The notes: generated by a model from the letters alone, not told the origin. Counted from the first letter of the stretch, positions 12,973 through 59,825 are shown. The stretch: DNA of 64,000 nucleotides from Abditibacterium sp. (GCA_965199495.1 CBDASK010000003.1:4416001-4480000), one strand, 5' to 3'. Numbers and translations: made by a program.

Positions 12973-13941
12973 ATGAGGAAAAATATGGGACGAATTATCG
13001 AAGGTAGCGCACCGGAATTACGCATGGCGTGGGGCAGTCACAATGTTTGGAAGGCCGGGCAGGAACACGAAGGGCCAGTTCATGCCCACACGATTTGGTT
13101 GCTGCTTTATGGCCACGCGCAGGTCAGCGACGGCTCACGAATATGGAAAGTGCGTTCCGACCATATTTTGTTGTGGCCCTATAATAAGCATCGCCACATT
13201 CGCGCGCTGAGCGATTCGGCGTGGCTCTCGATTGGAATCGCGCCTAACGCGCCGGGGCAAACTGATATTCTGCGGCTTTTGCCGTTGCCCGCCACCCATT
13301 TGTTGGAAGATGACGAAAATCGTCTGCTTCGCTCATGGTTCAGTCAGATCGTTGAACTGCGAGAAGCGCAGTCGCTGGCTTTGTTGATGGACTCGCCCCA
13401 TTATGGCAATCAAGACATCACGCAAATCCTCGGCGTGCGCCATGACATCGTCTCGCAGCGCCCGCACGAAATATGGATGGAACACGTCGTCGCCGAGCGC
13501 GCTTCTTTTTATGACATCGTCGAGCAGGGACTGGCTCAAGCCATCGTGGCGTGGTGCTGGAAAATATGGGGCAAGGGCGATTTGCAGCACGCCCTGCTCA
13601 GTCAGTTTCCGCCGTGGCTGCAAAGCACGCTGGAACGTATCGGCGAAAACCCCACGCTTTCAGTTCACGATTTAGCGCGCATCGCGGGCTTTAGCCCCGC
13701 CCATTTTCGCCGTTTGTTCCACCTCAATATGGGCCAGTCGCCGCGCGACTATCTGCAACACCAACGCCTCGAACTCGCCAGAAAGCTGCTCGAAACAACT
13801 TCGCTCCCGATTTCCGCCATCGCAACCCAGACCGGTTTTGCCAGCGTGCCGCACTTCACGCAAAAATGGAAAACGGCGCACGGCTCGCCGCCGCATCAAT
13901 ATCGTTTGTCGCATCACAGAGCAGAAACACGGAATTTCTAA
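12973..13941 (+). CDS. AraC-family transcriptional regulator
   Basis: N-terminal cupin-like domain plus AraC HTH; start uncertain (12949/12973/12985). Confidence 0.88.
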   Translation: MRKNMGRIIEGSAPELRMAWGSHNVWKAGQEHEGPVHAHTIWLLLYGHAQVSDGSRIWKVRSDHILLWPYNKHRHIRALSDSAWLSIGIAPNAPGQTDILRLLPLPATHLLEDDENRLLRSWFSQIVELREAQSLALLMDSPHYGNQDITQILGVRHDIVSQRPHEIWMEHVVAERASFYDIVEQGLAQAIVAWCWKIWGKGDLQHALLSQFPPWLQSTLERIGENPTLSVHDLARIAGFSPAHFRRLFHLNMGQSPRDYLQHQRLELARKLLETTSLPISAIATQTGFASVPHFTQKWKTAHGSPPHQYRLSHHRAETRNF

Positions 13942-13991
13942 AACGAAGAGCGAAAACCGTTATTTCATGAGCTTTACCCGTTAAATAGCGC

Positions 13992-14020
13992 GTTTGAAAT
14001 AACGGTATTGAGGGAATACT
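13992..14020 (+). promoter_or_regulatory. Conserved promoter GTTTGA-N17-AATACT upstream of pilin-like gene
   Basis: Motif shared with 8 other sites. Confidence 0.7.
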
Positions 14021-14051
14021 TAATAAAGCATTCTGGCTTAGAGGCATTTCC

Positions 14052-14870
14052 ATGCAATATACACAACAATCTCAAATTCTGCAACGTGATAGAAGAAATT
14101 TTTCAGCCTTCACACTTATCGAGCTTCTCGTTGTGATCGCGATCATCGCCATTCTCGCGGCGATTCTGTTTCCTGTTTTCGCGCGTGCCCGTGAAAACGC
14201 ACGGCGCAGTTCGTGCCAATCGAACTTGAAGCAAGTTGGGCTGGCATTTTTGCAATATAGCCAAGATTACGACGAATATTGTGTTCCGATTCGCAATGGC
14301 GGTGGCAGCACTTCTTTTCACTGGGCTTGGCATATCATCATGCAGCCTTATGTCAAGAGCCGTCAGATTTTCGTGTGCCCCAGCAATACTACGGATGCTC
14401 TTGGTCAACCAAGCCTGTTGTCTTACACTTATAACCTGCACGCGGGTGGCCCCAATGCTCCAAGAACTCTGGCTTCGATTGTCAACAGCGCGCAAATGCC
14501 TGTGGTGATCGATGCTTCTGGAACTTCCCTTCCTAATCGGGCGCACTTGGTAAACGTTCTGGATGCGAACAGACAACGCGGACGCAAAACCGACTGCGAC
14601 AACGAGGGACAATGCCCTGGCGGAGCTGGCGATTCCCTCGGCGCCACCATTAAAGCTTTGACGCACTTCGATGGCGCGAATTACCTTTTTGTGGACGGCC
14701 ACGTCAAGTTTTTTCGTGCCGTCGTTGGAACTACGACGGCACCACTGCCTTATGTTGGTGGTGTGCCTGCAACTTCCAGCCCCCAATTTCTCGCTTCACC
14801 GCCGAGACTCGGCATAGATTGGGATGGCGATGGCATTGTTGGTGACAGTTCGGATAACATTTGGAAGTAA
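14052..14870 (+). CDS. Prepilin-type N-terminal cleavage/methylation, DUF1559, H-X9-DG protein
   Basis: [43 protein letters not shown]...[22 protein letters not shown]. Confidence 0.92.
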
Positions 14871-15014
14871 TAGACCGAGCCAGCACCCCCGGCCTTTATT
14901 GGGTCGGTGCCCCTTGAGTTACGGCATGACTCTGCTGTGATTCGGGTGACAACCGTTATGATAGCCGCACTAACGTTAATCTTGATAACCTTTTAGGGAA
15001 TTTCCACCTCACTT

Positions 15015-16706
15015 ATGTCATCAGTCCAACCCTCCACGCAACCAAGTGACGCGATTAACGACTCCGCATCACCAAAAGGACGTTTGGCTTCGGTGGGCCG
15101 TTATCGCTGGGTTATCTGCGCGCTGTTATTTTTCGCCACCACGATCAACTATGTTGACCGTCAGGTGCTGGGCATTATCGCGCCGACTCTGCAAAACGGC
15201 CCCGCGCTGTTCACGCCCGCGATGATTGACGACGCGCCCGCGTTGGCGAGCGCGCTGCAAACACCAGCCACGCCGACTGCGCGTTTAATCCAGTCGCGGC
15301 TTTCGCCTGCGACAATTGCGGCCTTGGGCAACAGTCAGGGCGACGCGCTCAAGACCGCGTTATCCGACGATCTCAACCGCATCGCGGCAGGCGCGCCGCT
15401 TTATAGTGCGGCGAGTTTCGACCGCGCGCAGTTTTCGGCGCATTTGCAGGGACAGCTCGAAAAGTATCAGAAAAAACCGCCCAAAGGCGAAGAAGCCACG
15501 CGCATCAATCACTGGATTATCGAGGAATCGTTCCCCAAAGCTATCGTCACCAGTCTGCGCTGGAGCGACGTGGAATACGGCTATATCAATTCGGCGTTCT
15601 CCTTCGCTTATGCCATTGGAATGCTGCTCGTCGGCGGATTGTTGGATCGGTTCGGCGTGCGCATGGGCTATGCTGCGGCGCTTGTCGTGTGGAGTCTGGC
15701 GGCGATGGGACACGCGTTCGCGGGTTCGGCGTTTAGTTTTGGCGTGGCGCGTTTTGCTCTCGGTCTGGGCGAATCGGCCAACTTTCCCGCCGCGATTAAA
15801 ACCGTCGCCGAGTGGTTTCCCAAGAAAGAACGCGCGCTCACGACCGGCATTTTCAATTCCGGCTCCAATATCGGCGCCATCGTCGCGCCGGTCGCCGTTC
15901 CGGTTATCGCGCTGGCTTACGGCTGGCGCGAGGCGTTCGTTATCACCGGTTTGTTGGGATTGTTGTGGCTCTTTTTCTGGCTGCCGATTTACCGCGAACC
16001 CGAAGAGCATCCCAAAGTTTCGCCCGCAGAACTCGCTTACATTCGCAGCGATCCGGCTGACCCGCAGGAGAAGATTGGGTGGGGACAATTGTTGGGTTAT
16101 CGCCAGACGTGGGCGATTCTGGTGGGCCGCATGATGACCGAGATTCCGTGGTGGTTTTATCTGTTCTGGGGCGCGAAATTTCTCGATACGCAATTCGGCG
16201 TCAGCCTGAAACAGGTCGGCTTGCCGCTCATCGTGATTTACGTGATGGCCGATGTCGGCAGCATCGGCGGCGGCTGGCTGTCATCGGCACTGCTCAAGCG
16301 CGGTTGGAACGTCAACGCCGCGCGCAAAACCGCGCTTTTGGTGTGCGCGCTGTGCGTGTTGCCGGTGACGTTCGCGCCTAAAGTCGGCAGTCTGTGGGGC
16401 GCCGTGGCTCTGATCGCGCTGGCGGCGGCGGCGCATCAAGGTTGGTCGGCGAACTATTTCACGCTCGCTTCGGATATGTTCCCGCGCCGCGCGGTGGCTT
16501 CAATTGTCGGCATCAGCGGCTTTTTCGGCGCGATGTCGAATGTCGTCGGCCAAGCGGCGATTGGTAACGTGTTGGACAAAAACGGTGGCAACTACACGCC
16601 GATTTTCGCGCTGTGCGGCATCGCGTATCTGGCGGCAGTAGGCGTGGTGCATTTTATGGCGCCCAAACTCGAACCCGCGCAAGTGCGGGCAGTTCGCGAT
16701 TCGTAG
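15015..16706 (+). CDS. exuT: ExuT-like MFS hexuronate transporter with large loop insertion
   Basis: RYRWVICALLFFATTINYVDRQ, GESANFPAAIKTVAEWFPKKER, AAAAHQGWSAN..TL.SDMFP. Confidence 0.8.
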   Translation: MSSVQPSTQPSDAINDSASPKGRLASVGRYRWVICALLFFATTINYVDRQVLGIIAPTLQNGPALFTPAMIDDAPALASALQTPATPTARLIQSRLSPATIAALGNSQGDALKTALSDDLNRIAAGAPLYSAASFDRAQFSAHLQGQLEKYQKKPPKGEEATRINHWIIEESFPKAIVTSLRWSDVEYGYINSAFSFAYAIGMLLVGGLLDRFGVRMGYAAALVVWSLAAMGHAFAGSAFSFGVARFALGLGESANFPAAIKTVAEWFPKKERALTTGIFNSGSNIGAIVAPVAVPVIALAYGWREAFVITGLLGLLWLFFWLPIYREPEEHPKVSPAELAYIRSDPADPQEKIGWGQLLGYRQTWAILVGRMMTEIPWWFYLFWGAKFLDTQFGVSLKQVGLPLIVIYVMADVGSIGGGWLSSALLKRGWNVNAARKTALLVCALCVLPVTFAPKVGSLWGAVALIALAAAAHQGWSANYFTLASDMFPRRAVASIVGISGFFGAMSNVVGQAAIGNVLDKNGGNYTPIFALCGIAYLAAVGVVHFMAPKLEPAQVRAVRDS

Positions 16707-16796
16707 AGACACCGATTTATCGTGTCTAAAACGTAAATGAACTCGTAAATTTAGTGGGGTATGAACGTTTTAGACACGATAAATCGGTGTCTCTAC
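16703..16796. repeat. REP doublet (REPIN-like) with 32-bp inverted arms
   Basis: GTAGAGACACCGATTTATCGTGTCTAAAACGT at 16703-16734 and its reverse complement at 16765-16796. Confidence 0.85.
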
Positions 16797-16825
16797 AACA
16801 GCAAATTCCCATCTATAAAAAAACC

Positions 16826-19615
16826 ATGCGATTTTTATCAACCCTAATACTTTTATTGACCGTTATCGCCACTGCGCTGGCCGCTCCGACGCAACGGCAA
16901 TATCTGTCGGGCACCGACAAAGATCACACAGTCGCGTGGCAATTTTCGGTTTCGACGGGCCGTAATAGCGGTCAGTGGAGCACGATTCCCGTTCCGTCGA
17001 ACTGGGAAACCAAAGGTTTCGGCAATTACACTTCGGGCGACCGGCCCAAAAATCCCGAAACCGGGCTTTATAAAACCAATTTTACCGTGCCGAATTCGTG
17101 GCGCGGCCAGCACATTGACATCGTTTTCGAGGGCGCCATGACCGACACTTCGGTGAAAATCAACGGAGCCACGGCGGGGCCGACGCATCAGGGCGGGTTT
17201 TACCGGTTTCACTACGACATCACTCCGCTCATCAAATTCGGGCAATTGAATACGCTCGAAGCGACGGTGGATAAAGTTTCCGCCGATAACTCGGTCAATC
17301 GCGCCGAGCAGCAGGGCGACTATTGGAGTTTCGGCGGCATTTATCGCCCGGTTTATCTGGCGGCGCGGCCCGCCCAATCTATCGAACGCGTGGCGATTAA
17401 CGCGCAGGCCGATGGCACTTTTGCGGCGGATGTGACGCTCGATGGCGTCACGGACGCCGACGTTTTGGCGGCGCAAGTGCAAACCTTAGAGGGCAAACCG
17501 GTCGGCGTGGCTGTATCGGCGCGCGTTACGCCCGGCCAGACGAGCGCAACGCTTAACGCGAAGATTAATGCGCCTTTACAGTGGACTGCCGAAACGCCGA
17601 ATTTGTATCAAGCCGTGATTCAACTGGGGCGCGGCAAACGCGAAATTCATCGCATAACGCAGCGCTTCGGCTTTCGCACCATCGAAGTGCGCGAGGGCGA
17701 TGGCATTTACGTCAACGGGCGCAAGATTATGTTGAAAGGATCGGATCGGCATTCGTTCTGGCCCGAAAGCGGGCGCACGACCAGCGCGACGATTAACCGC
17801 GACGACATTCTGCTGATGAAGCAGATGAACATGAACGCGGTGCGGATGTCGCACTACCCGCCCGACGTTGATTTTCTCGATTCGTGCGACGAGTTGGGAC
17901 TTTACGTTTTGGATGAAATCGCGGGCTGGCAGAAAAAATATGACACGCCCATCGGTAAAAAAATCGTCAGAGAAACCGTGTTGCGCGACGTGAATCATCC
18001 GTCCATTTTGTTCTGGGACAACGGCAACGAAGGCGGCTGGAACACCGAGTTGGACGACGATTACGCGCTCTACGACCCGCAGAAACGCCATGTTCTGCAT
18101 CCGTGGATGCTGTTTCGCGGCATTGATACCGGACATTACAAAACGTATAACGGCACGCGCGATTTGCTCGATAAAAACAACATCGTGATGCCGACCGAGT
18201 TTTTGCACGGCCTTTACGACGGCGGCGCGGGCGCGGGTCTGGACGATTACTGGAACTTGATGCAGAGCCGTCCTCTGGCGGCGGGCGGTTTCATCTGGGC
18301 GTTTTTGGACGAGGGTTTGGTGCGCGACGACCAAAACGGCGCCATTGACGTTTTCGGCAATCGCTATCCCGACGGCATTCTGGGGCCTCACCGCGAGAAA
18401 GAAGGCAGCTTTTACACCATCAAAGACGTTTGGTCGCCGATTCAAATCGGCAGCCGCGATTATTACGAAAAGCAGTTTCCCGATGCTTTCAATGGCGAGG
18501 TTTCGCTCGATAATCATTATTCGTTTACCAACGCCAGCCAGTGCAGTTTCGCTTGGAAATTGGTGAATTTTCCGGCGCCCGATGGCAAGAGTTCGGCAAA
18601 TATCGTCGTGGCGCAGGGCCGCGCGCCCAGCCCACAAATCGCGCCGGGCGCGAGCGGCAAGTTGAGCCTGAATTTGCCCGCCAACTGGCGCAATTCCGAT
18701 GCGCTTCAATTGAGCGCGAGCGATCCGACTGGGCACGAACTCAACCGCTGGATGTGGCCGATCAAGCGCGCGTCAGATTTTGAGAGTCGCATCGTCGCCC
18801 GCTCCAATGCAGCCACGGCGCCCGTGGCTGCGACGCAGGACGCGGATAACTTCGTTTTGACGGCGGGCCAAACCGTCGTCAGCATTAGTAAAAGCACGGG
18901 ATTAATTGCGCAAGTGCAACGCGGCGGAACGGCTGTCGGGCTGGACAACGGGCCAACGCTTGCGGCTTCGTCGCCGACGCAAAACGAATTGAAAAGCGTG
19001 ACGAACCAAACCGACGGCAGTGCGCAAGTTGTCGAGGCGACGTTTAGCGGAAATATGAACTCGATTCGCTACGAGTTGCAGCCAAACGGTTGGCTTGGGG
19101 TGAGTTACAAATATAATCTCACAGGCGCGCAGGATTACATGGGCGTGAGTTTCGACTTGCCCGAAAAGCAGGTTCAGGGCATCAAATGGCTGGGTGTGGG
19201 GCCATACCGCGTGTGGAAAAACCGGATGCGGGGCGGCGAAATCGGCGTGTGGTCGAAGGCTTACAACGACACCGCGACCGGCGCCGACACCTGGAATTAT
19301 CCCGAATTTAAGGGCTATTACGCGCGCACTTACTGGGCGAAATTGCAAACCACAAACGGGCCAATTACGGTCGTGACGCCCGACGAAAACCTGTTTTTGC
19401 GGCTTTACACGCCGCGCAACGGCCCCGATCCCAAAGGCGCGGAAGCGAAATTTCCTGCGGGCGACATCTCGTTCTTGGACGGCATCGCGCCCATTGGCAA
19501 CAAGTTTCACAGCGCCGACGCGACCGGGCCACAGGGGGCGCCCAACGACGCCAAAGGCGATACCGCGCACACGCTTTTCTTCTATTTTGGCGAGCCAACT
19601 TCCGCGCCACGATAG
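16826..19615 (+). CDS. GH2 glycoside hydrolase (beta-galactosidase-like)
   Basis: FGGIYRPV, RFGFR, NMNAVRMSHYP, NHPSILFWDNGNE; ATG at 16826 gives a signal peptide. Confidence 0.9.
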   Translation: MRFLSTLILLLTVIATALAAPTQRQYLSGTDKDHTVAWQFSVSTGRNSGQWSTIPVPSNWETKGFGNYTSGDRPKNPETGLYKTNFTVPNSWRGQHIDIVFEGAMTDTSVKINGATAGPTHQGGFYRFHYDITPLIKFGQLNTLEATVDKVSADNSVNRAEQQGDYWSFGGIYRPVYLAARPAQSIERVAINAQADGTFAADVTLDGVTDADVLAAQVQTLEGKPVGVAVSARVTPGQTSATLNAKINAPLQWTAETPNLYQAVIQLGRGKREIHRITQRFGFRTIEVREGDGIYVNGRKIMLKGSDRHSFWPESGRTTSATINRDDILLMKQMNMNAVRMSHYPPDVDFLDSCDELGLYVLDEIAGWQKKYDTPIGKKIVRETVLRDVNHPSILFWDNGNEGGWNTELDDDYALYDPQKRHVLHPWMLFRGIDTGHYKTYNGTRDLLDKNNIVMPTEFLHGLYDGGAGAGLDDYWNLMQSRPLAAGGFIWAFLDEGLVRDDQNGAIDVFGNRYPDGILGPHREKEGSFYTIKDVWSPIQIGSRDYYEKQFPDAFNGEVSLDNHYSFTNASQCSFAWKLVNFPAPDGKSSANIVVAQGRAPSPQIAPGASGKLSLNLPANWRNSDALQLSASDPTGHELNRWMWPIKRASDFESRIVARSNAATAPVAATQDADNFVLTAGQTVVSISKSTGLIAQVQRGGTAVGLDNGPTLAASSPTQNELKSVTNQTDGSAQVVEATFSGNMNSIRYELQPNGWLGVSYKYNLTGAQDYMGVSFDLPEKQVQGIKWLGVGPYRVWKNRMRGGEIGVWSKAYNDTATGADTWNYPEFKGYYARTYWAKLQTTNGPITVVTPDENLFLRLYTPRNGPDPKGAEAKFPAGDISFLDGIAPIGNKFHSADATGPQGAPNDAKGDTAHTLFFYFGEPTSAPR

Positions 19616-19653: not shown

Positions 19654-19737
19654 TAACTCTCTTTGCTTGTCATTCTGAGCGTTCGTGCCTTCTGCCCAGA
19701 GGGCGCCCACGCTCAGAATGACAAGCAAAGAGAGTTA
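19654..19737. repeat. Inverted repeat with 29-bp arms, GTCATTCTGAGCG family
   Basis: taactctctttgcttgtcattctgagcgt / acgctcagaatgacaagcaaagagagtta. Confidence 0.85.
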
Positions 19738-19744
19738 CCTTTTT

Positions 19745-21337
19745 ATGAAACGTTCTTCCCGATTTCGATTCGCGCCCGCGCTGTTGGCGGGCGCCGTGGC
19801 TGTTATGGGCTGCGGCCTCTTAACCCCGATTTTCGCGCAAACGACGGCGCCGCCTGCGGCGACGGCGAATCTTGCCCTGAGCGGCGAATATAATGTGCGC
19901 GCGTTTGGCGCGCGCGGCGATGGCAAAGCGCTCGATACTGACGCGATTAACCGCGCGATGGCGACGGCTTCGGCGGCGGGCGGCGGCACAGTTCTGGTGC
20001 CCGCCGGAACTTATCCGTGTTTGTCGTTGCACCTCAAAAGCAATATCCGCCTGCATCTCGACGCGGGCGCCGTGCTTTTGGCCGCCGAGCGTACCGAAAC
20101 GCAGCGCTACGACGCGCCCGAACCCAATGCCTCGACCAAATTTCAGGACTTCGGGCACAGCCACTGGCAGGACGGCTTTTTGTGGGGCGAGAATCTGGAA
20201 AACCTCACCATAGATGGGCCGGGCGAAATTTATGGCAAAGGCTTGGTCAAGGGCGACTCGAAGTTAGAGGGCACCGGCAATAAAGCGATTGCTCTGAAAA
20301 ATTGCCGCAACGTCAACTTCAGCGACTTCACGATTCGGCACGGTGGTTGGTTCGGTATTCTGGCGACGGGCGTGGACAATTTCACGCTCGACAATTTGAA
20401 GATTGACACCAATCGCGACGGCATGGACATTGACTGTTGCCGCAACGTGCGCCTTTCCAATTGCAGCATCAACTCGCCCAACGATGACGGGCTGTGCCTG
20501 AAAAGTTCCTACGGATTGAACGAGGCGCGCGCGACCGAGAACGTGACTATTACGAACTGCTTCGTAAGCGGCTACGACGAAGGCACGGTTTTGGACGGCA
20601 CGCGGCAATATCATCCCGAACGGGCGCCGAGCGGTTCGCCGCAGGGTCGCATCAAGTTCGGTACGGAATCGAACGGTGGTTTCAAGAACATCACGATTTC
20701 CAACTGTATCTTCGATCATTGTCGCGGTCTGGCGCTCGAAACCGTGGACGGCGGATTATTGGAAGACGTGACGATCAGCAACATTACCATGCGCGACATC
20801 AGCAACGCGCCGATTTATCTGCGTCTGGGCCGCCGGATGCGCGGGCCAGACGGCGCGGCTGTCGGCGAGCTGCGGCGCGTCAATATCTCGAACATCGTGG
20901 CTTATAACGTCGATCCCAAATCGTGCGTCATCATCAGCGGCATTCCCGATCACCATATCGAAGACGTTACGCTTTCCAACATTCAGATTTGGTATCAAGG
21001 CGGCGGCACGGCAGAGCAAGCCAACCTCGTGCCCAAGGAAGACGAAAGAGGTTATCCCGAACCGGAATTTTTGGGCATCATGCCCGCTTACGGATTTTAT
21101 CTGCGCCACATCAAAGGCATTACGCTTGATAATATCCAGTTGCATACTTTGTCCGCCGATGCGCGCCCGCCGCTTGCGCTGAGCGACGTGGTGGGCGCCG
21201 AATTCTTCCGCGTCAAAGCCGATAAAGCCGAGCAAACGCCGGTTTTCGCCATCAAAGATTCGTCGGATTTGACGATTCGCATGGTCAAAGGTGCGCAGGA
21301 TAAAGAGCAAAAAGAGCTTTATCAGGACAACTTTTGA
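19745..21337 (+). CDS. GH28-family glycoside hydrolase; paralogue of 8475..10058
   Basis: Same motifs, with long identical peptide stretches shared with the 8475 protein. Confidence 0.9.
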   Translation: MKRSSRFRFAPALLAGAVAVMGCGLLTPIFAQTTAPPAATANLALSGEYNVRAFGARGDGKALDTDAINRAMATASAAGGGTVLVPAGTYPCLSLHLKSNIRLHLDAGAVLLAAERTETQRYDAPEPNASTKFQDFGHSHWQDGFLWGENLENLTIDGPGEIYGKGLVKGDSKLEGTGNKAIALKNCRNVNFSDFTIRHGGWFGILATGVDNFTLDNLKIDTNRDGMDIDCCRNVRLSNCSINSPNDDGLCLKSSYGLNEARATENVTITNCFVSGYDEGTVLDGTRQYHPERAPSGSPQGRIKFGTESNGGFKNITISNCIFDHCRGLALETVDGGLLEDVTISNITMRDISNAPIYLRLGRRMRGPDGAAVGELRRVNISNIVAYNVDPKSCVIISGIPDHHIEDVTLSNIQIWYQGGGTAEQANLVPKEDERGYPEPEFLGIMPAYGFYLRHIKGITLDNIQLHTLSADARPPLALSDVVGAEFFRVKADKAEQTPVFAIKDSSDLTIRMVKGAQDKEQKELYQDNF

Positions 21338-21388
21338 TTTCCGGCACTGCCAAAAATCTTGCGAGCGCGCCGATTGCTCCCGAACATT

Positions 21389-22420: not shown

Positions 22421-22478
22421 AATCGGCAGATTTTTGATGAGATCGAGATATTGATGATATAATTTTCGGTGGAGCCAA

Positions 22479-22488
22479 ATACCGGTAT
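22479..22488. promoter_or_regulatory. ATACCGGTAT palindromic operator
   Basis: Perfect 10-bp palindrome; 5 intergenic copies in the window. Confidence 0.6.
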
Positions 22489-22504
22489 CTTAGCTTTTTG
22501 GATT

Positions 22505-37926: not shown

Positions 37927-37936
37927 CAGGAGTATT

Positions 37937-49424: not shown

Positions 49425-49534
49425 CGAATCCTTGCCCTTGCTCTTTAACAGGGACAAGGGCGATTTAGTTCCGTCACCTTCACCGATGCGCCTGACCACA
49501 GGAACGATGCGAAATTGTTCGTGCGGCCCGCGAT

Positions 49535-51349: not shown

Positions 51350-52471
51350 CTAATAAATCGCGTCTTCGGTTGTGGCGTCGAACAAGTGCGTCTTGTCCAG
51401 ATCAATCGCGACGCGGAGCGGCTGGCCTTCGGTGGCGCGCGTGTCCGACGATAATCCGGCGACGAGTTGTTGCTCGCCCATCGTGAGATAGGCCACGGTC
51501 ATTTCGCCCATCGGCTCGATGACGTCCACTTTGGCTTCGATGGTATTTTTTTCGTTCGCGTCAATGACTTTGGTAATGCTGGCATCGAAAACGTCGCCGG
51601 GGCGCACGCCAAAAATCACTTCTTTGCCAACCCAATCCTTCAATTTGCCATTATATTTGGGCGGCGTGGCGATTTGAAAAGCGCCGGTATCCACGATGAA
51701 TCCGTCGCCATCGGTTTTGAGTTGCGCTTTCAAAAAGTTCATCGAAGGCGTGCCGATGAAACCGGCGACGAACATATTGACCGGATGGCGATATAATTCC
51801 ATCGGCGTCGCGCACTGCTGAATCAAACCGTCCTTCATCACGGCGATGCGCTGGCCCATCGTCATCGCCTCGACCTGATCGTGCGTGACGTAAACCGTCG
51901 TCACGTTGAGGCGACGGTGCAATTTGATGAGTTCGGCGCGCGTCTGCACGCGCAGTTTGGCGTCGAGGTTGGACAAAGGTTCGTCCATCAAAAAGACCTG
52001 TGGCTCGCGCACAATGGCGCGGCCCAGAGCCACGCGCTGGCGCTGGCCGCCCGACAGTTGGCTCGGTTTGCGCTTGAGCAGTTCGGCCAGACCCAACTGA
52101 TCGGACACTTCTTGAATGCGCCCGTCAATTTGCGATTTTTCGGTTTTGCGCAACTTCAGGCCAAAAGCCATATTGTCGTAAACCGTCATGTGCGGATAGA
52201 GCGCGTAGTTTTGGAAAACCATCGCGATGTCGCGGTCTTTGGGCGCCAGATCGTTGACGACCTTTTCGCCGATGGAAATCGTGCCGCCGTTGATCTCTTC
52301 GAGACCGGCGATCATGCGCAGCGTCGTGGTTTTGCCGCAACCCGAAGGCCCGACCAAAACCATAAATTCGTGATCGTGAATCGTCAGGTCAATGCCCTTG
52401 ACAACGACCGTTTCGCCGCCCGTATCGTTGCGGTAAGTCTTAACGAGCTTTTGTAGTTGAACTTGCGCCAT
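51350..52471 (-). CDS. msmX: Carbohydrate ABC transporter ATPase (MsmX/UgpC/MalK type)
   Basis: GPSGCGKTT, DIAMVFQNYALYPHM, LSGGQRQR, DEPLSNLDAKLR, TOBE C-terminus. Confidence 0.9.
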   Translation of the reverse strand: MAQVQLQKLVKTYRNDTGGETVVVKGIDLTIHDHEFMVLVGPSGCGKTTTLRMIAGLEEINGGTISIGEKVVNDLAPKDRDIAMVFQNYALYPHMTVYDNMAFGLKLRKTEKSQIDGRIQEVSDQLGLAELLKRKPSQLSGGQRQRVALGRAIVREPQVFLMDEPLSNLDAKLRVQTRAELIKLHRRLNVTTVYVTHDQVEAMTMGQRIAVMKDGLIQQCATPMELYRHPVNMFVAGFIGTPSMNFLKAQLKTDGDGFIVDTGAFQIATPPKYNGKLKDWVGKEVIFGVRPGDVFDASITKVIDANEKNTIEAKVDVIEPMGEMTVAYLTMGEQQLVAGLSSDTRATEGQPLRVAIDLDKTHLFDATTEDAIY

Positions 52472-52614
52472 AAGAATTATTATTTGGAAACTTTGGGATT
52501 CCCCAGTGTGACACAAAATACTAATATCGCCAAAGAACTTTATTTTTGCGAAACTGGTCAAAGATTTATTTCTTCAACAAAACGATGTCTTCTCGATTTG
52601 TTTTTCCCACCATA

Positions 52615-55569
52615 ATGCCCCGAAAAATCAAATTTTCAACACTTTCCACCACTTTTGCTTTGCTCGGCAGTGCAGCCACGGCGGCGCCCAGTGCCCACGC
52701 CGCGCCACTAAACCCCGTTGTTATCGGCGGTGCGCGCTTTTCGGTGTTGACGCCCAATTGCATCCGTATGGAATACGATGCGGACGGCAAATTCATAGAT
52801 TTACCGTCGCTGTTCGCCGCCAACAGGGACGCGCGTTTCGATAATTTCAAATTGGAAAAAGAGGGCGCCAATACAGTCATTGATACCGGTGCGATTCGCC
52901 TGAAATACGCGCCCGATGGTCAAACGTTTTCGGCCAAAAATTTGTCGGCGACGATCAAAGATGGCACGAACTGGACGCCGGGCGCCAAAAACGTGGGCAA
53001 TCTGGGCGGCACGCTGCGCACGCTTGATGGCGTGAAAGGGCCGGTGCCGGTTCTGCCGGGCGTTTTGTCGCGCGACGGTTGGGCTTTAATTGACAACTCG
53101 CGCGACCCGCTTCTCACCAAAGATTGGGTCGAGGCGCGGCCTCAAGACGCAGGCAGCGATTGGTATTTGTTCGGCTACGGCCACGATTATCGGGCGGCCT
53201 TGAAGTCGCTGACGAGCGTGAGTGGCGAAGTGCCGTTGCCGCGCAAGAATTTGCTGGGCACCTGGTATTCGCGTTACTGGCCGATTTCGTCGGCGGAATA
53301 TCGCGAGTTCGCCAAAGAATACGAGCAGCACGATTTCCCGCTCGACAACATGGTTTTGGACATGGACTGGCACCGTCAAGGCTGGACGGGCTGGAGCTGG
53401 AACCGCGATTTGATTCCCGATCCGGAAAATCTGATTTCCGATTTGCACAAACAGGGCTTGCAGGTCACGCTCAACCTGCACCCCGCCGACGGCGTGGCTG
53501 CATCGGAAGACCAGTATCCTGCCTTTATGAAAACGTTGGGCGCACCCAACGATGGCAAAACAATTCCGTTTGATGCCGCCGACCAAAAACAAATGAACGC
53601 GCTGGAAACGCAGGTTTTAGATCCCTTGACCAAAGCGGGCGTGGATTTTTGGTGGGTGGACTGGCAGCAATATCCCAACACGCGCGGCATTCCCGAACTG
53701 ACGAATTTGTGGTGGATTAACGAACTTATGTCGCGCTACACGCAGGAAGGCGGACGGCGTGGCGTTTCGTTTTCGCGTTGGGCCGGTTGGGGCGATCAGC
53801 GCCATCCGATTCACTTTTCGGGCGATGCTTCGTCGGACTGGAGTTCGCTGGCGTTTCAGGTGCCGTTTACCGCAACTTCGGGCAACGTCGGTTGTTTTTT
53901 CTGGACGCACGATATCGGCGGACATAACGGCGGGCGCAACGAAGAATCTTATGCGCGTTGGTGTCAGTTCGGCGCGCTTTCGGCGTCATTGCGTTCGCAC
54001 TCGTCGCGCGACGCCGACACCGACCGGCGCCCGTGGAAATATCCCAAATGGGACGAAGATTCGATGCGCGACAGCTTCCACCTGCGCTCGGAACTGTTTC
54101 CCTATATTTATTCCAGCGCCGCGCAAAGCACGCGCGAATCGGTGCCGATGCTGCGCCCGATGTATTTCGATTACCCCGAAACCGAAGCCGCCTATCACAA
54201 TGGGCAAGAATATCTGTTCGGCGACGATTTGCTGGTCGCGCCCATCGCCTCGCCGGGCGTCGGGCCGAATCGCGTGGCGCATCAGGCGGTCTGGTTTCCC
54301 AACGGCAGCAATTGGTTTAACACGTTCACCGGCGAAAAATATCAGGGAGGAACGGACGCGTTATGCGCGGCGGACATCAACGAATTTCCGCTTTTTGCGC
54401 GCGGCGGCGTGCCGGTCGCGATGCAGCCGTATAGCGACCGTATGACGAGCGTCAAAATTTCGACGCTGCGTTTGCGCGCTTTTCCGGGCGCGAACGGGCA
54501 AAGCGGGCGCTCGGAGTTATACGAAGACGACGGCCAGACCAACGCTTACAAAACCGGTGCGTCCGCCCAAACGCCGTTGCGTTATACGCGTAACGGCAAC
54601 CGCATCGAAATCGCGGTCGGCGCGACGCAGGGCAAATTCGCCGGACAACTGCTGACGCGCGCCTATCAAATTGAATTGCCCGCGACGCAGCGCGCGACGG
54701 GCGCTACGCTCGACGGCAAAAGTTTGGCGGTGCGCTACGATGCAGCCACGGCGACCAACACGATTGCGGTTCCGGCGCGTTCGATTGGCGGCAACTTTTC
54801 GGTTTTCGTCATCGCCGCCGATGCCGACGCCACAGTTCTGCGCAACGTCGCGCAGGCGCGCCGCATGAAAGGCGTGACGGGCCGCGATTTCGCGCCGCAA
54901 AATCCGCACGACTTACTCCAAAACGCGCTGGCTGGCCAACTTTCGGGCGCGCAACGCGACGAGGCGTTGGCGGTTGTCGGCGTGGGAATTATCGCGAAAA
55001 ACCAATCGCCAATTTTCGCGCGCGGCGATGTGCGCGACGTGGTTTATGTGCCGTCGGGCGTGTTGGACGAAGCGCCCCACATCGAAACGGTTTCGCGTTC
55101 GAGCGCGACTTTTGAAGTCGGCGGCCAAAAGCTGATGTTGCCCGATCTGTTGGGCGGCGACATCGCGCCCAATGCGACCGTGACGGTTTCGGGCGTCGAA
55201 AACGGTTATGGATTTAAGGGCGCGACCGATAAAATTCCGGGCGGCTATCCCGACAATCGCGACAACGAATGGTCGAGCGGCCAAAAAGTGGGCGCCACGA
55301 TTCGCCTGACGTGGAAAACGCCGCAGAAGATTGATCGCGTCCAACTTTTCGACCGGCCCAACGAAAACGATAACGCGTTGAAATCGCAATTGACGTTCAG
55401 CGACGGCACAACAGTTGAAGTCGGCGCCCTACCCAACAACGGAAAAACGCCCGCCGAAGCGCGTTTTGCCGCCAAAACGGTGACGTGGGTCGAATGGAAA
55501 GCCCTCGAAGTCAGCGACAACACCGAAAACATCGGATTGGGCGAATTCGCCGTTTTTGGCGTGGGCTAA
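52615..55569 (+). CDS. GH31 glycoside hydrolase with C-terminal accessory (F5/8-like) domain
   Basis: WYSRYW, LDMDWH, DFWWVDWQQ, FSGD, HDIGGH, LYEDDG; start 52585 or 52615. Confidence 0.88.
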   Translation: MPRKIKFSTLSTTFALLGSAATAAPSAHAAPLNPVVIGGARFSVLTPNCIRMEYDADGKFIDLPSLFAANRDARFDNFKLEKEGANTVIDTGAIRLKYAPDGQTFSAKNLSATIKDGTNWTPGAKNVGNLGGTLRTLDGVKGPVPVLPGVLSRDGWALIDNSRDPLLTKDWVEARPQDAGSDWYLFGYGHDYRAALKSLTSVSGEVPLPRKNLLGTWYSRYWPISSAEYREFAKEYEQHDFPLDNMVLDMDWHRQGWTGWSWNRDLIPDPENLISDLHKQGLQVTLNLHPADGVAASEDQYPAFMKTLGAPNDGKTIPFDAADQKQMNALETQVLDPLTKAGVDFWWVDWQQYPNTRGIPELTNLWWINELMSRYTQEGGRRGVSFSRWAGWGDQRHPIHFSGDASSDWSSLAFQVPFTATSGNVGCFFWTHDIGGHNGGRNEESYARWCQFGALSASLRSHSSRDADTDRRPWKYPKWDEDSMRDSFHLRSELFPYIYSSAAQSTRESVPMLRPMYFDYPETEAAYHNGQEYLFGDDLLVAPIASPGVGPNRVAHQAVWFPNGSNWFNTFTGEKYQGGTDALCAADINEFPLFARGGVPVAMQPYSDRMTSVKISTLRLRAFPGANGQSGRSELYEDDGQTNAYKTGASAQTPLRYTRNGNRIEIAVGATQGKFAGQLLTRAYQIELPATQRATGATLDGKSLAVRYDAATATNTIAVPARSIGGNFSVFVIAADADATVLRNVAQARRMKGVTGRDFAPQNPHDLLQNALAGQLSGAQRDEALAVVGVGIIAKNQSPIFARGDVRDVVYVPSGVLDEAPHIETVSRSSATFEVGGQKLMLPDLLGGDIAPNATVTVSGVENGYGFKGATDKIPGGYPDNRDNEWSSGQKVGATIRLTWKTPQKIDRVQLFDRPNENDNALKSQLTFSDGTTVEVGALPNNGKTPAEARFAAKTVTWVEWKALEVSDNTENIGLGEFAVFGVG

Positions 55570-55646: not shown

Positions 55647-55820
55647 GTTCATTTGCTGGAACAGCATTTCAACGCCGACGGGTTTCACCTGACGCTCATG
55701 CGCACACCGGACGAAGTCCAGAATTTGGTCAACGCCTCCAATAATATGTTTGCTACTGTAGCCCTTCGCTTTGGGAAGGGCTACAGCACTCTCGTCGTTA
55801 GAAAATCACTGGGCAAACGC
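55647..55820 (+). pseudogene. Heavily deleted LacI regulator relic
   Basis: VHLLEQHFNADGFHLTLMRTPDEVQNLV matches VHLLEHHLSAEDFHLMLLGTPREVEELV (21389 LacI); LVVRKSLG matches the C-terminus of the 45526 LacI. Confidence 0.7.
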
Positions 55821-55914: not shown

Positions 55915-55962
55915 GTTTGAAAGAAGCGCGATTTGGGTATAATAACTTAGAGATACCGGTAT
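55915..55962 (+). promoter_or_regulatory. Promoter GTTTGA-N17-TATAAT plus ATACCGGTAT operator
   Basis: Promoter at 55915-55943; operator at 55953-55962. Confidence 0.75.
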
Positions 55963-56010: not shown

Positions 56011-56820
56011 ATGATCTCTTCCCTGAAATCCCCACTTTCCGCACCTAAAAATGCGAAATCCGCGTTCACGCTTATCGAGTTGCTCGTCGTGATCGCCATC
56101 ATCGCCATCCTCGCGGCGATTCTGTTCCCCGTTTTTGCCCGCGCCCGTGAAAACGCTCGTCGTTCGTCCTGTTCCAGCAATCTCAAACAGATCGGTTTGG
56201 GCGTTATGCAATATACACAGGATTACGACGAAAGGATGCCGTCAGGTCGAATCACAGATCAATCAAACTGGGAAGTTGTAATTCAACCCTACGTCAAGAG
56301 CTATCAGCTTTTCGTCTGTCCTTCAAATACTCGTAACACTGTTACAATGTCCAACGGCGGAGATTCTAATCCCGGTGGCCCTTCCAGAACCTTCGTTTCC
56401 TATGCAGCCCCCATTGAGATCTCGCCTAACGGCGCCGCATTTGGGAACATAGGTGCGGCTGGCCCCAGCTTGGCTGATTTTCAGAGCGTTTCACAAACTA
56501 TCATGGTTTGTGAAACCAACACAAGCGACACCGATTTCCGCTTGACTGGCGCTTCATGGGTGGGTCCAACGTCGCAGAACACTGGCAATAACCCAGCCAT
56601 ATTCTCTGGCCATCTCGGAACGACGAATCTGCTCTTTGCTGATGGTCACGTTAAATCAATGAAGCCTATGCAAACGATTCCCAGCGACCCCACTAACAAC
56701 TTTCAAGGTTCTGGTTCTTATAATATGTGGAGCAGACTTAGCGATAACTCGTATGGAGGCAACAAATGGGGGGATCGCGTAACAAATATGCTGAGCAATT
56801 CCACCCAAAAATATCAGTAG
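56011..56820 (+). CDS. Prepilin-type DUF1559 / H-X9-DG protein
   Basis: A|FTLIELL...; [15 protein letters not shown]. Confidence 0.92.
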
Positions 56821-56882: not shown

Positions 56883-58547
56883 CTACTTTGCGCCGAATAC
56901 TTCGACTTCCGAAGTAAACGCGAACTGAACGTGATACCCGGATTCATTGGGATAATGATCGGGATATGTCAATCTCACGTAACGCGTGGGCGTCGCGTTG
57001 AACGAATAGAGATGGCGCTCTTCCGCATTTTGATTGAACACGTAACTGCCGACTTTGGTGAAGTTCTGGCCGTCGCGGCTCAGCGCGACTTCGACGGTTT
57101 TAGTCGAGCCGAATTTGGGCACGCCCAGCCAGACATATTTCACCGGCGTAACCGCGCCCAGATCAATCGTCGCGTTTTTGGGGAATTCGTCTTTTTCGCC
57201 CGACGCGAAAGTGTGCGGTTGTTCGCCGCTCCATGAGCCGTCGGTCAGTCCGCCCGTGCCGTAATCGTAGACGTTGGGGTCGGAAGCCGTGTAAGGTTTG
57301 CCCAGCGCCAGATTCGGCCCGGCGTCGGCGGGCAAACCGGTCGCACTCACTTCGATGGTCACGCCTTCGACGGGCGCGCTCAGACTGTCTATGGCTTGTT
57401 GATAATTATCGTCGGCGCGCTTCAGAGCAGCCACGGCGCCATCAATGGCTGGCCCCTGAACCGGCCCCAACTGCAAATTGCGCCACCAATTGAAGTTGTT
57501 GCCCTCTTTCCAATTGGTCACGTCCCACAATTTGTGCGCCTGTTCGGAATAGGTGCCGGGCACCAGAACGCCCGCGTTTAACTCTTTGTCGCTCCACATT
57601 CCCAAACTTTTACCATTGATTTTCACGTCATAAGTGCCCGGCTTCAAATCGCGCACGCGCAGGTTTTGTCCGGCGACCTTCAAGAATCCGACCGCGCGCG
57701 CGCCTTGCGCGCCGATTTCGCTCATCCATAAGGGCACACGCACTGGTTGTTGCGGCTTAATCTGGCTTTTATCGGCGCCCGTCAATTGCGCGGCGCTCAC
57801 ATCGGCCAAAGGCGGCATCGGCTCGGCGCCCATGCCAACGAGCATCGCGCCGCTCATCACGATGCCGCCGTTTTCGTCGGGATGAACGGCGTCGGGAATC
57901 ATCGAAGAACCGGGGTTCTGGGCTTTGACAGCGGCCCACGCGTCCAAAATCGGATGGAGAATATCAATGTAAGTCGCGCCATACTTACGCGCGATTGCTT
58001 TGTCGGCCTCGCCAAACGCTTCGAGCGTTTTGTTGTATTGCACGTCAATCAACTGGTTCTTCGCGACCCAACCCGGCTGGCGATCATAATCCACTGGCGA
58101 CGGCGAAAACACGATGACGCGAATTTTCTGGTCGGTCAACGCCTTGACGATTCCGTCCATTTTGGCCGTATAATTGGCGAGCATCGCGTCGTCGAGCTTG
58201 CTGTAACGCCCATCGTTCATGCCAAAACAAACCGTGACAACATCGGGTTTGAGCGGCATCACATCGCGGTTCAAGCGGCTTAATCCGTTGTCGGCTTTGT
58301 CGCCCGACCAACCCGCGTTGAAAAAGCGGATGTGGCGTTCGGGATAGCGCGCATAAACGTAATCCTGAAAAGGCCGCGTGTAGTTGTGAAATTCGGTGAT
58401 GCTGTCGCCATAAAAAACCACGCGGTCATTGGTTTTCAGGGGGAAATCGGCGCGCGCGATTTGCGGACAAAGCAGCAACGTGCCCGCGCCGGTGGCTGCT
58501 ATCAGCGTCAGAGGCAATTTCCAACGATTTTGGGGGGAAGTTTTCAT
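56883..58547 (-). CDS. SGNH/GDSL carbohydrate esterase with C-terminal F5/8 type C domain
   Basis: FYGDSIT, NAGWSG, GMND, DAVHP; NLALGKP..LTDG. Confidence 0.82.
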   Translation of the reverse strand: MKTSPQNRWKLPLTLIAATGAGTLLLCPQIARADFPLKTNDRVVFYGDSITEFHNYTRPFQDYVYARYPERHIRFFNAGWSGDKADNGLSRLNRDVMPLKPDVVTVCFGMNDGRYSKLDDAMLANYTAKMDGIVKALTDQKIRVIVFSPSPVDYDRQPGWVAKNQLIDVQYNKTLEAFGEADKAIARKYGATYIDILHPILDAWAAVKAQNPGSSMIPDAVHPDENGGIVMSGAMLVGMGAEPMPPLADVSAAQLTGADKSQIKPQQPVRVPLWMSEIGAQGARAVGFLKVAGQNLRVRDLKPGTYDVKINGKSLGMWSDKELNAGVLVPGTYSEQAHKLWDVTNWKEGNNFNWWRNLQLGPVQGPAIDGAVAALKRADDNYQQAIDSLSAPVEGVTIEVSATGLPADAGPNLALGKPYTASDPNVYDYGTGGLTDGSWSGEQPHTFASGEKDEFPKNATIDLGAVTPVKYVWLGVPKFGSTKTVEVALSRDGQNFTKVGSYVFNQNAEERHLYSFNATPTRYVRLTYPDHYPNESGYHVQFAFTSEVEVFGAK

Positions 58548-58670
58548 GATGGGAAATTTTTGAAGTGGCTCAAAGAGCAAAATAGGCGAAATTTATCTTG
58601 CCAAGCCGTTTGGGGAGCGCCCCTTTTGTTCCGGCAAGATGAATTTCTTCGCTTCTCATATAGACCTTGA

Positions 58671-58843
58671 ATACCGGTATTTTGTGGCGGAGAAGCGAAT
58701 GATCTGCTTGATTTGCCAGTCAGACGGCACGGGCTACTCTTTAGCAATAGAGCGTTAAATCAAAGGCAAGATTCTGTGAAAAAGCAAATAGTAGTCTATA
58801 TCAGCCCACAAACCACAGTGCCCACGTTTACTGATACCGGTAT
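58671..58843. promoter_or_regulatory. Two ATACCGGTAT operators (58671-58680, 58834-58843) in a divergent promoter region
   Basis: Perfect palindromes. Confidence 0.6.
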
Positions 58844-58869
58844 TTCTTTACATTGCCTCCAAATTTACT

Positions 58870-58898
58870 GTTTAAGAATCACCGAGTTTGGGTATAAT
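58870..58898 (+). promoter_or_regulatory. Promoter GTTTAA-N17-TATAAT
   Basis: Conserved motif. Confidence 0.7.
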
Positions 58899-58973
58899 AA
58901 TTATCAGAGATAACGGCCTTAGCACTTTTGGAAGTAGCCACCGCCTCTCTTTCATTTTCAAAAACCCCCAATC

Positions 58974-59768
58974 ATGTCCCCCCTCCGTTCTCCAATCACC
59001 GCTCACAAAAGCGCAAAATCTGCGTTTACGTTGATCGAGTTGCTCGTCGTGATCGCGATCATCGCCATCTTGGCGGCAATTCTGTTCCCCGTGTTCGCCC
59101 GTGCGCGCGAAAACGCCCGCAAAATCTCGTGCATCAGCAATCTCAAGCAAATCGGCTTGGGCGTCATGCAATACACTCAGGATTATGACGAGCGCTACCC
59201 ACTGCGCTATTATGGGGGGGCACCCAATGATAATATAAAATTTGCCAACTCATGGCGTCGTCAAATTTTCCCCTACGTCAAAAGCACCCAGCTGTTCCAG
59301 TGCCCCTCCAACACCAGCAATAACTTACTCGCAGACGATAGCATTCCTGCTACTATGTCAGGTGCGAATTTACCTGCGGGTTCGCCACAGTTCTATCGTT
59401 CTTACGCGATTAATGGTGCCAACAGCTTTGGCGGAACCCCACCCTCGGAATACGACCATGCGGCATCGATGTCCCAGCTTGTGAGTAGTTCGGAAGTCAT
59501 CTTGGTTACCGAGATGACCCAAGCGATTGGTTTCACTGGAGATATTCCCGGTTCTATTGATAACTGGGGTAACCCTGATTATGTGTTCAAAGGTCACTTG
59601 AATTTTGTCAACTTCCTGTTCTGCGATGGTCACGCCAAATCGATGAAGGTCATGGCAACGGCAACTCCCAAGAATCTGTGGAGCGGTGAAGATGATGGCC
59701 CAATTCCCAATCCTTCTAATGGTTGGACTCGTATAGTCAACTGGCAAACATTGGTGGACAAGTCGTAA
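58974..59768 (+). CDS. Prepilin-type DUF1559 / H-X9-DG protein
   Basis: A|FTLIELL...; [15 protein letters not shown]. Confidence 0.92.
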
Positions 59769-59787
59769 AAAGCCAGTCAACCGAATT

Positions 59788-59825
59788 AAAAACGCGTGCA
59801 TCTTTCCGATGCGCGCGTTTTTTTT
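59788..59825 (+). terminator. Rho-independent terminator
   Basis: aaaaacgcgtgcatc-tttcc-gatgcgcgcgtttttttt. Confidence 0.8.

Follow-up and report, generated by a model that had tools for sequence, protein, structure and literature searches.

Polysaccharide utilisation loci (PULs) of the Sus type in Bacteroidota bring together, for each substrate, a regulator, exported glycosidases, an inner-membrane transporter and one private envelope gene. We describe a similar layout in a 64,000-nucleotide stretch of the genome of Abditibacterium sp. (GCA_965199495.1, CBDASK010000003.1:4416001-4480000; hereafter the window, with positions counted from its first letter), in which the private gene encodes a prepilin of the DUF1559/H-X9-DG family. 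The family is known from Planctomycetota and related phyla, with 41 or more paralogues per Planctomycetales genome according to the accessible text of PMC8567305, and the available parts of five papers leave it uncharacterised (PMC8567305, PMC2754498, PMC4807772, PMC5352709, PMC10632474). In some of these DUF1559 is a solute-binding family exclusive to the Planctomycetes-Verrucomicrobia-Chlamydiae (PVC) group, and the text accessible gives it neither a function nor a link to sugars (PMC2754498, PMC4807772, PMC10632474). Our full-text search, which had supplements and most subscription papers outside its reach, found no literature tying DUF1559 genes to sugar regulons or B12 riboswitches. The members described here resemble those of other phyla in domains, motifs and the large set of paralogues (47 in this genome). 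They differ from the published picture in that the family is expanded in Abditibacteriota and Armatimonadota, is predicted to fold as a pilin and is tied into sugar and B12 regulation. Breakdown of many plant sugars, few TonB-dependent transporters (TBDTs) and a separate pilin for each sugar or B12 switch point to an undescribed fibre-based nutrient capture.

Several described systems share parts of this arrangement. In the archaeal bindosome (Bas of Sulfolobus solfataricus) a class III signal is likewise found on substrate-specific proteins that use one machine, the link to the machine being presumptive in our case. Bindosome subunits have a sugar-binding-protein fold and work in a cell without an outer membrane, whereas the heads here are predicted to be pilin folds of a diderm cell, and the range extends to B12. 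Pilus-linked glycan capture has been reported in PVC for the Akkermansia MUL2 pilus and for planctomycete fibres, which bind dextran that reaches the periplasm (PMC13174399 and PMC5394234, respectively, in the portions available); in contrast to MUL2, which is described in the accessible part of PMC13174399 as one conserved locus, dozens of separately regulated pilins occur here. Neisseria ComP and Streptococcus sanguinis PilC are examples of a variable pilin giving ligand specificity to a shared filament, but there are one or few of them per genome, with roles in taking up DNA or adhering to a host. In PilC a grafted lectin module is used (PMC9934059, accessible part); no grafted module is seen in the DUF1559 pilins here. 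Compared with BtuB-TonB and BtuFCD, the RNA switch and the first-gene position are the same, and a BtuF-like gene lies downstream in two loci, but the first gene is a prepilin and not an outer-membrane barrel. Finally, unlike in Sus-type PULs, the loci contain no SusC-like TBDT or SusD, the regulators are of LacI/AraC type, a number of pilins appear to be monocistronic, and a common motor would be encoded at another place in the genome.

The initial annotation, made from the sequence alone, had placed seven prepilin genes in the window. All seven are found there, with Pfam N_methyl and DUF1559/SBP_bac_10 (PF07596) matches above cut-off:

14052..14870, plus strand: prepilin 1, DUF1559/H-X9-DG (Pfam/NCBIfam)
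23827..24642, plus strand: prepilin 2, DUF1559/H-X9-DG, followed by a strong hairpin (Pfam)
33790..34527, minus strand: prepilin 3, DUF1559/H-X9-DG, of the GH106-linked clade (Pfam, tree)
44517..45305, minus strand: prepilin 4, DUF1559/H-X9-DG, modelled as a type IV pilin core with inserted loops (Pfam, model)
49535..50296, minus strand: prepilin 5, DUF1559/H-X9-DG (Pfam)
56011..56820, plus strand: prepilin 6, DUF1559/H-X9-DG, followed by a terminator-like hairpin (Pfam)
58974..59768, plus strand: prepilin 7, DUF1559/H-X9-DG, followed by a terminator-like hairpin (Pfam)

A pattern search finds H-x9-DGH in the C-terminal part of all seven proteins, and four of the seven match the TIGR04294 model at E<=0.001. 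Their class III signal consists of a short basic leader, cleavage after Ala, Phe1 and Glu5, and a hydrophobic helix. Mature residues 1-32 are identical in all seven; the heads are variable, and overall identity to prepilin 1 is 40-46%. Pairs of genes differ synonymously at 28-62% of the codons for these 32 residues, which indicates that selection, and not recent copying, holds the helix constant. The proteins fall outside GspG, with TIGR01710 scores of 28-38 bits against a cut-off of 88.85. AlphaFold2 models of prepilin 4 and of one B12-linked pilin (pLDDT, the predicted local distance difference test score, is 81 for each) both have a 51-residue helix, a small sheet and long inserted loops. 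The top 23 structural matches of the prepilin 4 model are all type IV pilins or pseudopilins, Thermus PilA4 being the best (Z 5.9, root-mean-square deviation 3.5, 118 aligned) and ComP the third; for the B12-linked model the same is true of the top 20 (best Z 5.3, again Thermus PilA4). No lectin or binding-protein fold, such as the two-lobed one that the name SBP_bac_10 implies, is among the top 50 structural matches listed, a statement about that list only. Foldseek returned no PDB match at E<=0.001 for the pilin model, and by sequence the PDB gave matches to the N-terminal helix only. From the structural matches, the heads are predicted to have a type IV pilin fold.

The DUF1559 genes of the genome (4.8 Mb, 95% complete; genome positions are given as C3:coordinate) fall into 39 groups, of which 7 belong to the window and 32 do not. 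We compared two genes on either side of the 32 outside groups (our own codon-model gene calls, searched against Pfam and tallied by eye) with those around 31 of 32 random anchors more than five genes away from any pilin. A carbohydrate-active enzyme (CAZyme; glycoside hydrolase, GH, or lyase), sulfatase, carbohydrate-binding module (CBM) or LacI/AraC/GntR-type sugar regulator was a neighbour at 12/32 pilin groups and 2/31 controls (Fisher p 0.005). Among the 15 LacI/AraC genes outside the window, 5 adjoin a pilin (P 3e-6; background 64/3784 genes) and 7 are within two genes of one (P 2e-7). The enrichment expected near pilins thus holds genome-wide beyond the window. The order of regulator, pilin and enzyme recurs with GH115, GH13, GH26 and sulfatases far from the CAZyme-dense island to which the window belongs. 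The stable unit is the regulator together with the pilin; CAZymes come and go around the pair.

Regulatory elements found around the window pilins are the following:

13992..14020, plus strand: shared promoter motif with one mismatch, overlapping an operator-like near-palindrome at 13999-14008 (putative function)
14971..14978, no strand: core of palindrome A before exuT, operator-like (putative function)
22479..22488, no strand: palindrome B before the second LacI gene (motif search)
23742..23782, plus strand: shared promoter 23742-23770, then palindrome A core 23775-23782 (motif search)
34555..34627, no strand: two perfect palindrome A sites, 34555-34564 and 34618-34627 (motif search)
45403-45431, minus strand: shared promoter of prepilin 4 (motif search)
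50317-50345, minus strand: shared promoter of prepilin 5 (motif search)
55915..55962, plus strand: shared promoter 55915-55943 and palindrome B 55953-55962 (motif search)
58671..58898, no strand: two copies of palindrome B (58671-58680, 58834-58843) and shared promoter 58870-58898 (motif search)
59842..59885, plus strand: shared promoter and palindrome B of xylF (motif search)

The promoter motif has two parts and was searched in a strict form and with one mismatch allowed. Of 24 strict sites in the genome, 15 precede a pilin (one at 734 nt), 4 a regulator that itself precedes a pilin, and 5 a SASA, LacI, GH92, GH2 or xylF gene. Since the motif was derived from the window pilins, the 17 sites outside are the non-circular part of the test, and 17/17 fit the pattern of pilin, regulator-pilin or sugar gene. 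With one mismatch there are 12 more sites, of which 5 are found at pilin or CAZyme genes and 7 elsewhere. The annotated position of each pilin as first gene after a promoter stands for six of seven by the shared motif (five exact, prepilin 1 with one mismatch). It is not borne out by the motif for prepilin 3, which has two palindromic operators upstream instead. Strict sites in the window lie at 23742, 41674, 45403, 50317, 55915, 58870 and 59842. There are 14 sigma-70 region 2 matches in the genome, and the shared promoter may be the mark of a carbon-foraging sigma factor or activator.

Palindromes A and B are CG-centred and we take them to be of the LacI-operator type; operators often lie directly behind the -10 part of the promoter, as repressor sites do. 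Palindrome B occurs 10 times in the genome (0.56 expected), before three pilins, xylF, a LacI gene, GH92, GH76, SASA and SGNH genes and one unrelated gene. Palindrome A occurs 5 times (1.8 expected) and precedes two pilins, GH106 and a sugar ATP-binding cassette (ABC) gene, suggesting that it marks a rhamnoside regulon. The hybrid palindrome before prepilin 1 is a weak operator candidate and was set aside, with 27-28 occurrences against ~23 expected genome-wide. A third, GC-rich palindrome stands just behind the -10 of prepilin 4, of the GH2 gene at 41635 and of the pilin at C3:4402625 (window 45380-45402 and 41650-41673, both minus strand; C3:4403470) and is possibly the operator of the LacI regulator at 45526.

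Prepilins 6 and 7 end in strong terminator-like hairpins with T runs, and prepilin 6 is followed by a convergent gene. Both xylF, with a promoter and an operator, and exuT, with an operator-like site, have signals of their own. These genes are therefore better described as regulon members than as operon heads, and several pilins look monocistronic and co-regulated with catabolic genes rather than heading a common transcript. The description of the modules as PULs headed by a pilin can consequently not be taken literally for these pilins. Hairpins after pilin genes are not significantly stronger than those after other genes genome-wide (p 0.14), so we make no general claim of mRNA stabilisation.

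As annotated, neither a TBDT nor SusD is present among the 40 open reading frames (ORFs) scanned in the window. The genome as a whole has three TBDT barrels, all outside the window and none beside CAZymes, one of which follows a cobalamin riboswitch; SusD was not found in the 95% of the genome available. Clustered CAZymes with a regulator and an inner-membrane transporter are thus present, with co-regulation judged from sequence, and the tandem susC-susD pair of Sus-type PULs is absent. The pilin loci are for this reason not PULs by definition; they are PUL-like in layout. LpxC, secretins and TBDTs mark the cell as diderm.

A search for pilB, pilC, pilD and pilQ found a full type IVa pilus machine outside the pilin loci. 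More specifically, the pilB-pilT-pilC-pilD operon also encodes four large prepilins and two proteins of 1300 residues, and the genome has in addition a pilMNOPQ-like cluster, Tad-type genes, another PilB and PilC and three more secretins; PilD and PilMNOP were assigned by sequence and gene order, not by family search. Two pilins of the core operon have the DUF1559 helix signature in common (E 5e-11 and 3e-9), and a motif search of the genome yielded no short major pilin. On these two grounds the DUF1559 proteins may be the bulk subunits of the filament. Three tandem secretin genes at C3:931419-936789, with no pilus or type II secretion genes adjoining, are a candidate exit or entry channel.

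The usual targets of cobalamin riboswitches are genes for B12 uptake or synthesis, or for B12-independent enzymes. The second such riboswitch of this genome lies directly before a pair of DUF1559 genes (C3:1499460 and 1498584). In 27 genomes of the family, the first gene after 39 riboswitch hits is a BtuB-like TBDT in 21 cases, a DUF1559 pilin in 11 and another gene in 7; the 11 pilin hits, one of them below the gathering score, come from 10 genomes of 4 genera. Two genomes of the genus have no TBDT match (92% and 87% complete), and in both the sole riboswitch precedes a pilin. A WWG-type motif is found in 14/16 B12 pilins and 0/143 other pilins; ARH residues are likewise specific to the subfamily. 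The subfamily was delimited by BLAST and hidden Markov model ranking, in which one non-B12 pilin comes close to the planctomycete members (81.8 vs 85 bits). In a blind test, a profile of the B12 pilins, applied to nothing but protein sequences, retrieved 10 new genes from 9 genomes belonging to 5 other families: a riboswitch lies just upstream of 6, with a BtuF-like gene next in 2 of these 6, and 2 others stand behind PepSY-TM or CobW-like genes. No cobalamin riboswitch was detected at 18 other pilin loci scanned in this genome, and the sugar-type shared promoter was at none of 12 B12 pilins. Given the usual role of these riboswitches, neither adhesion nor the export of CAZymes easily explains a pilin that takes the place of BtuB, and the B12 subfamily favours uptake over adhesion. 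At the locus of this genome (C3:1498584-1500658) the second pilin has a degenerate N-terminal helix, and btuC/D/F-like genes lie ~8-11 kb away (1487102-1490661). At five other Abditibacteriaceae loci (L218, L219, L221, L222, L229) a cobalamin riboswitch precedes long proteins, mostly ~800-870 aa, of unknown family, which are possible surface B12 binders.

The DUF1559 family is present in all 20 relatives sampled (4 to at least 73 matches; TBDTs 0-4). In two same-genus genomes, 11 of 14 LacI-type genes among the matches listed (of 19) and 5 of 13 among those listed (of 23) lie <=1.5 kb from a DUF1559 gene, against an expected share of <=4-6%. Across 13 same-genus genomes the counts of DUF1559 and LacI-type genes correlate with rho 0.94 (0.97 per Mb, candidate counts), the highest pilin counts being lower bounds (at least 73), whereas TBDT counts (0-4) do not track the LacI-type counts (rho 0.19). 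In a local screen biased to the families of this genome, a regulator or CAZyme was near the pilin in 25/58 Abditibacteriota/Armatimonadota loci (4 of the 58 placed by judgement), 3/12 planctomycete, 2/6 verrucomicrobial and 0/3 remaining loci. Fidelity of pilin clades to regulator and substrate is partial. The pilin of the mannan locus has five close relatives, and 5/5 stand directly behind a LacI gene whose best match here is the same LacI; the epimerase is kept in 3/5, GH26 is within 8 kb in 0/5, and two have no adjacent CAZyme. The two GH106-linked pilins are sisters (SH-like approximate likelihood-ratio support of 100) in a quick tree in which 5/44 inner branches reach 95.

We propose that DUF1559 proteins are interchangeable nutrient-specific subunits of one shared type IV filament machine and do the capture job of SusC/D or BtuB, a reading to which we give a probability of about 0.5. 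Sugar would release LacI, or activate an AraC/XylR regulator, and the prepilin of the regulon would be produced along with exported glycosidases and inner-membrane major facilitator superfamily (MFS) or ABC importers. PilD would cleave the prepilin, the invariant helix would let PilB and PilC build the fibre, and the variable head would bind the cognate glycan. PilT-driven retraction through the secretin would then carry the oligosaccharide into the periplasm, where it would be cut and its monomers imported by MFS or ABC systems. The sister subfamily would take the same route for cobalamin under the B12 riboswitch. Pilin induction, processing, polymerisation, ligand binding and import by retraction are steps that we infer. 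The genomic system is real and well supported by gene content and arrangement. We read it as a form of type IV filament-based capture, of which the still hypothetical import step is the most valuable claim. In its widest form the proposal is tentative, and we would not yet bet on it: Abditibacteriota, Armatimonadota and parts of PVC would import large solutes (glycans, cobalamin, probably iron or other metal cofactors) independently of TonB, by a retractile type IV filament loaded with the ligand-specific pilin of the regulon.

A number of observations weigh against this proposal. In the genome, 20/32 pilin groups beyond the window lack a sugar neighbour in the two genes to either side and stand among housekeeping, metal and unknown genes. 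Four of these 20 have the shared promoter (1454085, 1643343, 2327131, 3348624), as does 1837571, where the adjoining genes look sugar-catabolic. Sugar control is not the sole use to which the family is put: in eight genomes outside the genus, 4-53 DUF1559 genes occur together with no more than 0-5 LacI-type regulators. The idea that each sugar regulon has its own pilin is supported by regulator pairing and shared cis-elements and fails as a sugar-only rule (20/32 loci; B12 subfamily). Substrate tracking is loose, since among 14 fetched loci of the GH106-linked clade GH106 is adjacent or one gene away in 3 and a weak GH106-like match occurs in one; of the rest, several have other CAZymes and some a regulator only or nothing. 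No close relative of the GH53-locus pilin was found in 26 genomes. Related genomes are not independent, so the P values overstate the significance. With values below 8, the structural Z-scores are modest. The pilin genes are not linked to machine genes, and the use of this machine by the pilins is thus presumptive. A BtuB under riboswitch control is retained in most genomes of the family, in some of them together with the pilin. Only 3/32 loci of Planctomycetota, a minority, have the riboswitch and pilin as a pair, as does 1/2 of Armatimonadota; in 16 loci of Verrucomicrobiota the pilin is never the first gene and is a later one in 2. Other first genes in these phyla are TBDTs, BtuF, CbiM, CbiK and DUF4465, and many have no match.

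All of the sugar-regulon evidence would also fit sugar-induced adhesins, with a pilus that sticks to the polymer being eaten or steers twitching while the products enter otherwise. Glycan-binding minor pilins for adhesion are known (PMC9934059), and the MUL2 pilus of Akkermansiaceae is interpreted as an attachment device (PMC13174399), both according to the text available. Adhesion, however, does not explain the cobalamin-riboswitch subfamily, found before a btuF-like gene and present where BtuB was not found, nor how solutes enter through the outer membrane with 3 TBDTs and 0 SusD (porins such as OprB were not searched for), and we consider it doubtful. Uptake of a different kind would be achieved by bindosome-like periplasmic collectors that sit in the inner membrane or on a short pseudopilus, bind solutes past the outer membrane and hand them to ABC or MFS importers. 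In the accessible parts of the respective papers, planctomycete members fractionate with membranes (PMC8567305), archaea provide a precedent with class III signals (PMC4471445) and a pilin aids iron uptake without piliation (PMC13170364); the pilins beside xylFGH, exuT and btuF-like genes would suit this role as well. Yet ordinary binding proteins (XylF, BtuF-like) are already encoded in the same loci, the identical 32-residue helix under synonymous divergence suggests packing constraints, and the head has a predicted pilin fold, with no binding-protein fold among the structural matches listed. Such collectors seem unlikely to us.

Another possibility is that the pilins are adaptors of type II secretion, pseudopilins selecting co-regulated enzymes or surface proteins for export through the secretin. 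Weak GspG profile matches, EpsG and PulG among the fold matches, signal-peptide-like N-termini of neighbouring CAZymes (by eye) and the extra secretins and second PilB/PilC are in line with this. We nevertheless find it improbable: regulator and pilin cassettes persist without an adjacent CAZyme (loci L166, L167, L168), and the gene after the B12 pilin in loci L280 and L281 encodes a periplasmic binding protein, which is not an obvious secreted cargo. Least of all do we expect that there is no functional link and that an expanded family landed behind convenient promoters. The window does lie within a CAZyme-dense island of ~145 kb and many paralogues do stand among housekeeping genes, but regulator pairing occurs far from the island and in other genomes, and the pilins have their own operators and promoter. 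The fidelity of a clade to a single LacI, the residues specific to a subfamily and the outcome of the blind riboswitch test also speak against it. Among these explanations we retain nutrient-specific pilins on a shared filament machine; the earlier interpretation of glycan-specific pilins is thereby partly supported.

The genes around the prepilins had been named correctly throughout. Pfam and NCBIfam matches were obtained for three AraC and three LacI regulators, the ExuT-like MFS transporter, two GH2, GH28, GH97, two SASA, GH106, two SGNH, the aldo/keto reductase, GH127 and xylF/G/H; the LacI relic upstream of prepilin 6 is real and has only ~34 codons. The map is as follows:

12949..13941, plus strand: AraC-family regulator (PF12833/PF00165)
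15015..16706, plus strand: ExuT-like MFS sugar-acid transporter (PF07690; TIGR00893 best, below cut-off)
16754..19615, plus strand: GH2 with signal-peptide-like N-terminus (Pfam)
19685..21337, plus strand: GH28-like beta-helix enzyme (Pfam)
21359..22420, plus strand: LacI regulator (Pfam)
22469..23569, plus strand: second LacI regulator (Pfam)
24694..26616, plus strand: GH97 (Pfam)
26620..28614, plus strand: SASA-domain carbohydrate esterase (Pfam)
29725..33471, minus strand: GH106 alpha-L-rhamnosidase (ORF from first start codon; true start probably near 33216; Pfam)
34750..35721, plus strand: AraC-family regulator, divergent from prepilin 3 (Pfam)
35974..38025, minus strand: SASA-domain esterase (Pfam)
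38246..41635, minus strand: GH2 with F5/8 module and its own shared-promoter copy at 41674-41702 (Pfam, motif)
41797..42999, minus strand: aldo/keto reductase (Pfam)
42851..44263, minus strand: CBM96 and SGNH esterase (Pfam)
45526..46569, plus strand: LacI regulator, divergent from prepilin 4 (Pfam)
46641..49499, minus strand: GH127 (Pfam)
50415..51266, plus strand: AraC-family regulator, divergent from prepilin 5 (Pfam)
51350..52561, minus strand: MalK/UgpC-type sugar ABC ATPase, an orphan without adjoining permease or binding protein (Pfam/NCBIfam)
52546..55569, plus strand: GH31 (Pfam/NCBIfam)
55647..55748, plus strand: LacI remnant, ~34 codons (tblastn E 2e-11)
56883..58580, minus strand: SGNH esterase with F5/8 module (Pfam)
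59918..64000, plus strand: XylF/XylG/XylH-like monosaccharide ABC importer, running off the window (best NCBIfam matches below cut-off)

Signal-peptide-like N-termini were seen by eye in the 12 window CAZymes inspected. The island extends over C3:4352000-4495000, and its stretch C3:4375686-4400000 contains GH78, two GH92, GH2 and GH67 with no pilin among them. Between two GH28-like genes at window 2381-8441 (plus strand) there are four exported-looking proteins, two with weak beta-propeller matches and two without a Pfam match, which are candidate new CAZymes. The AraC genes at 1-416 and 12949-13941, ~13 kb apart, start with the same residues and are followed by similar promoters (467-495, 13992-14020), only one of which is followed by a pilin; the pair is a recent local duplication.

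Elsewhere in the genome, DUF1559 genes occur in further settings. PepSY-TM proteins are the usual partners of iron-uptake TBDTs; three DUF1559 genes at C3:2782109-2785832 are followed by a PepSY-TM gene, and one also stands beside a pilin in locus L291. Two pilins lie in a redoxin, DJ-1/YHS and CusF cluster (C3:4605590-4609831), a neighbourhood suggestive of copper or metals; the small gene before them has no Pfam match, and the idea that it is DUF2946-like was dropped. Five short (~190 aa), divergent DUF1559 genes form a tandem behind a shared promoter at C3:2965445-2968400, followed by GH2. In six proteins (C3:244767, 384773, 404099, 404725, 1275809, 1085997) the DUF1559 head or the second half of the helix stands behind other N-termini without a class III signal.

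Few uncharacterised families in Planctomycetota and related phyla are as large as DUF1559. According to the available text of the papers concerned, planctomycete CAZyme clusters are still without functional characterisation (PMC11131199), and it is still an open question how glycans cross the outer membrane where Sus systems are lacking (PMC5394234, PMC11131199). This genome offers named sets of gene, inducer and ligand: the rhamnoside/GH106 pilin with palindrome A, the xylF-linked pilins with palindrome B, the mannan-locus pilin and the B12 pilin. They make the idea of 'pili as fishing rods' directly testable. If import takes place as proposed, it would be a second general route for active nutrient uptake across the outer membrane, pilin subfamilies would predict the substrate range of uncultured lineages, and the pilin repertoire of a genome would be its receptor repertoire.

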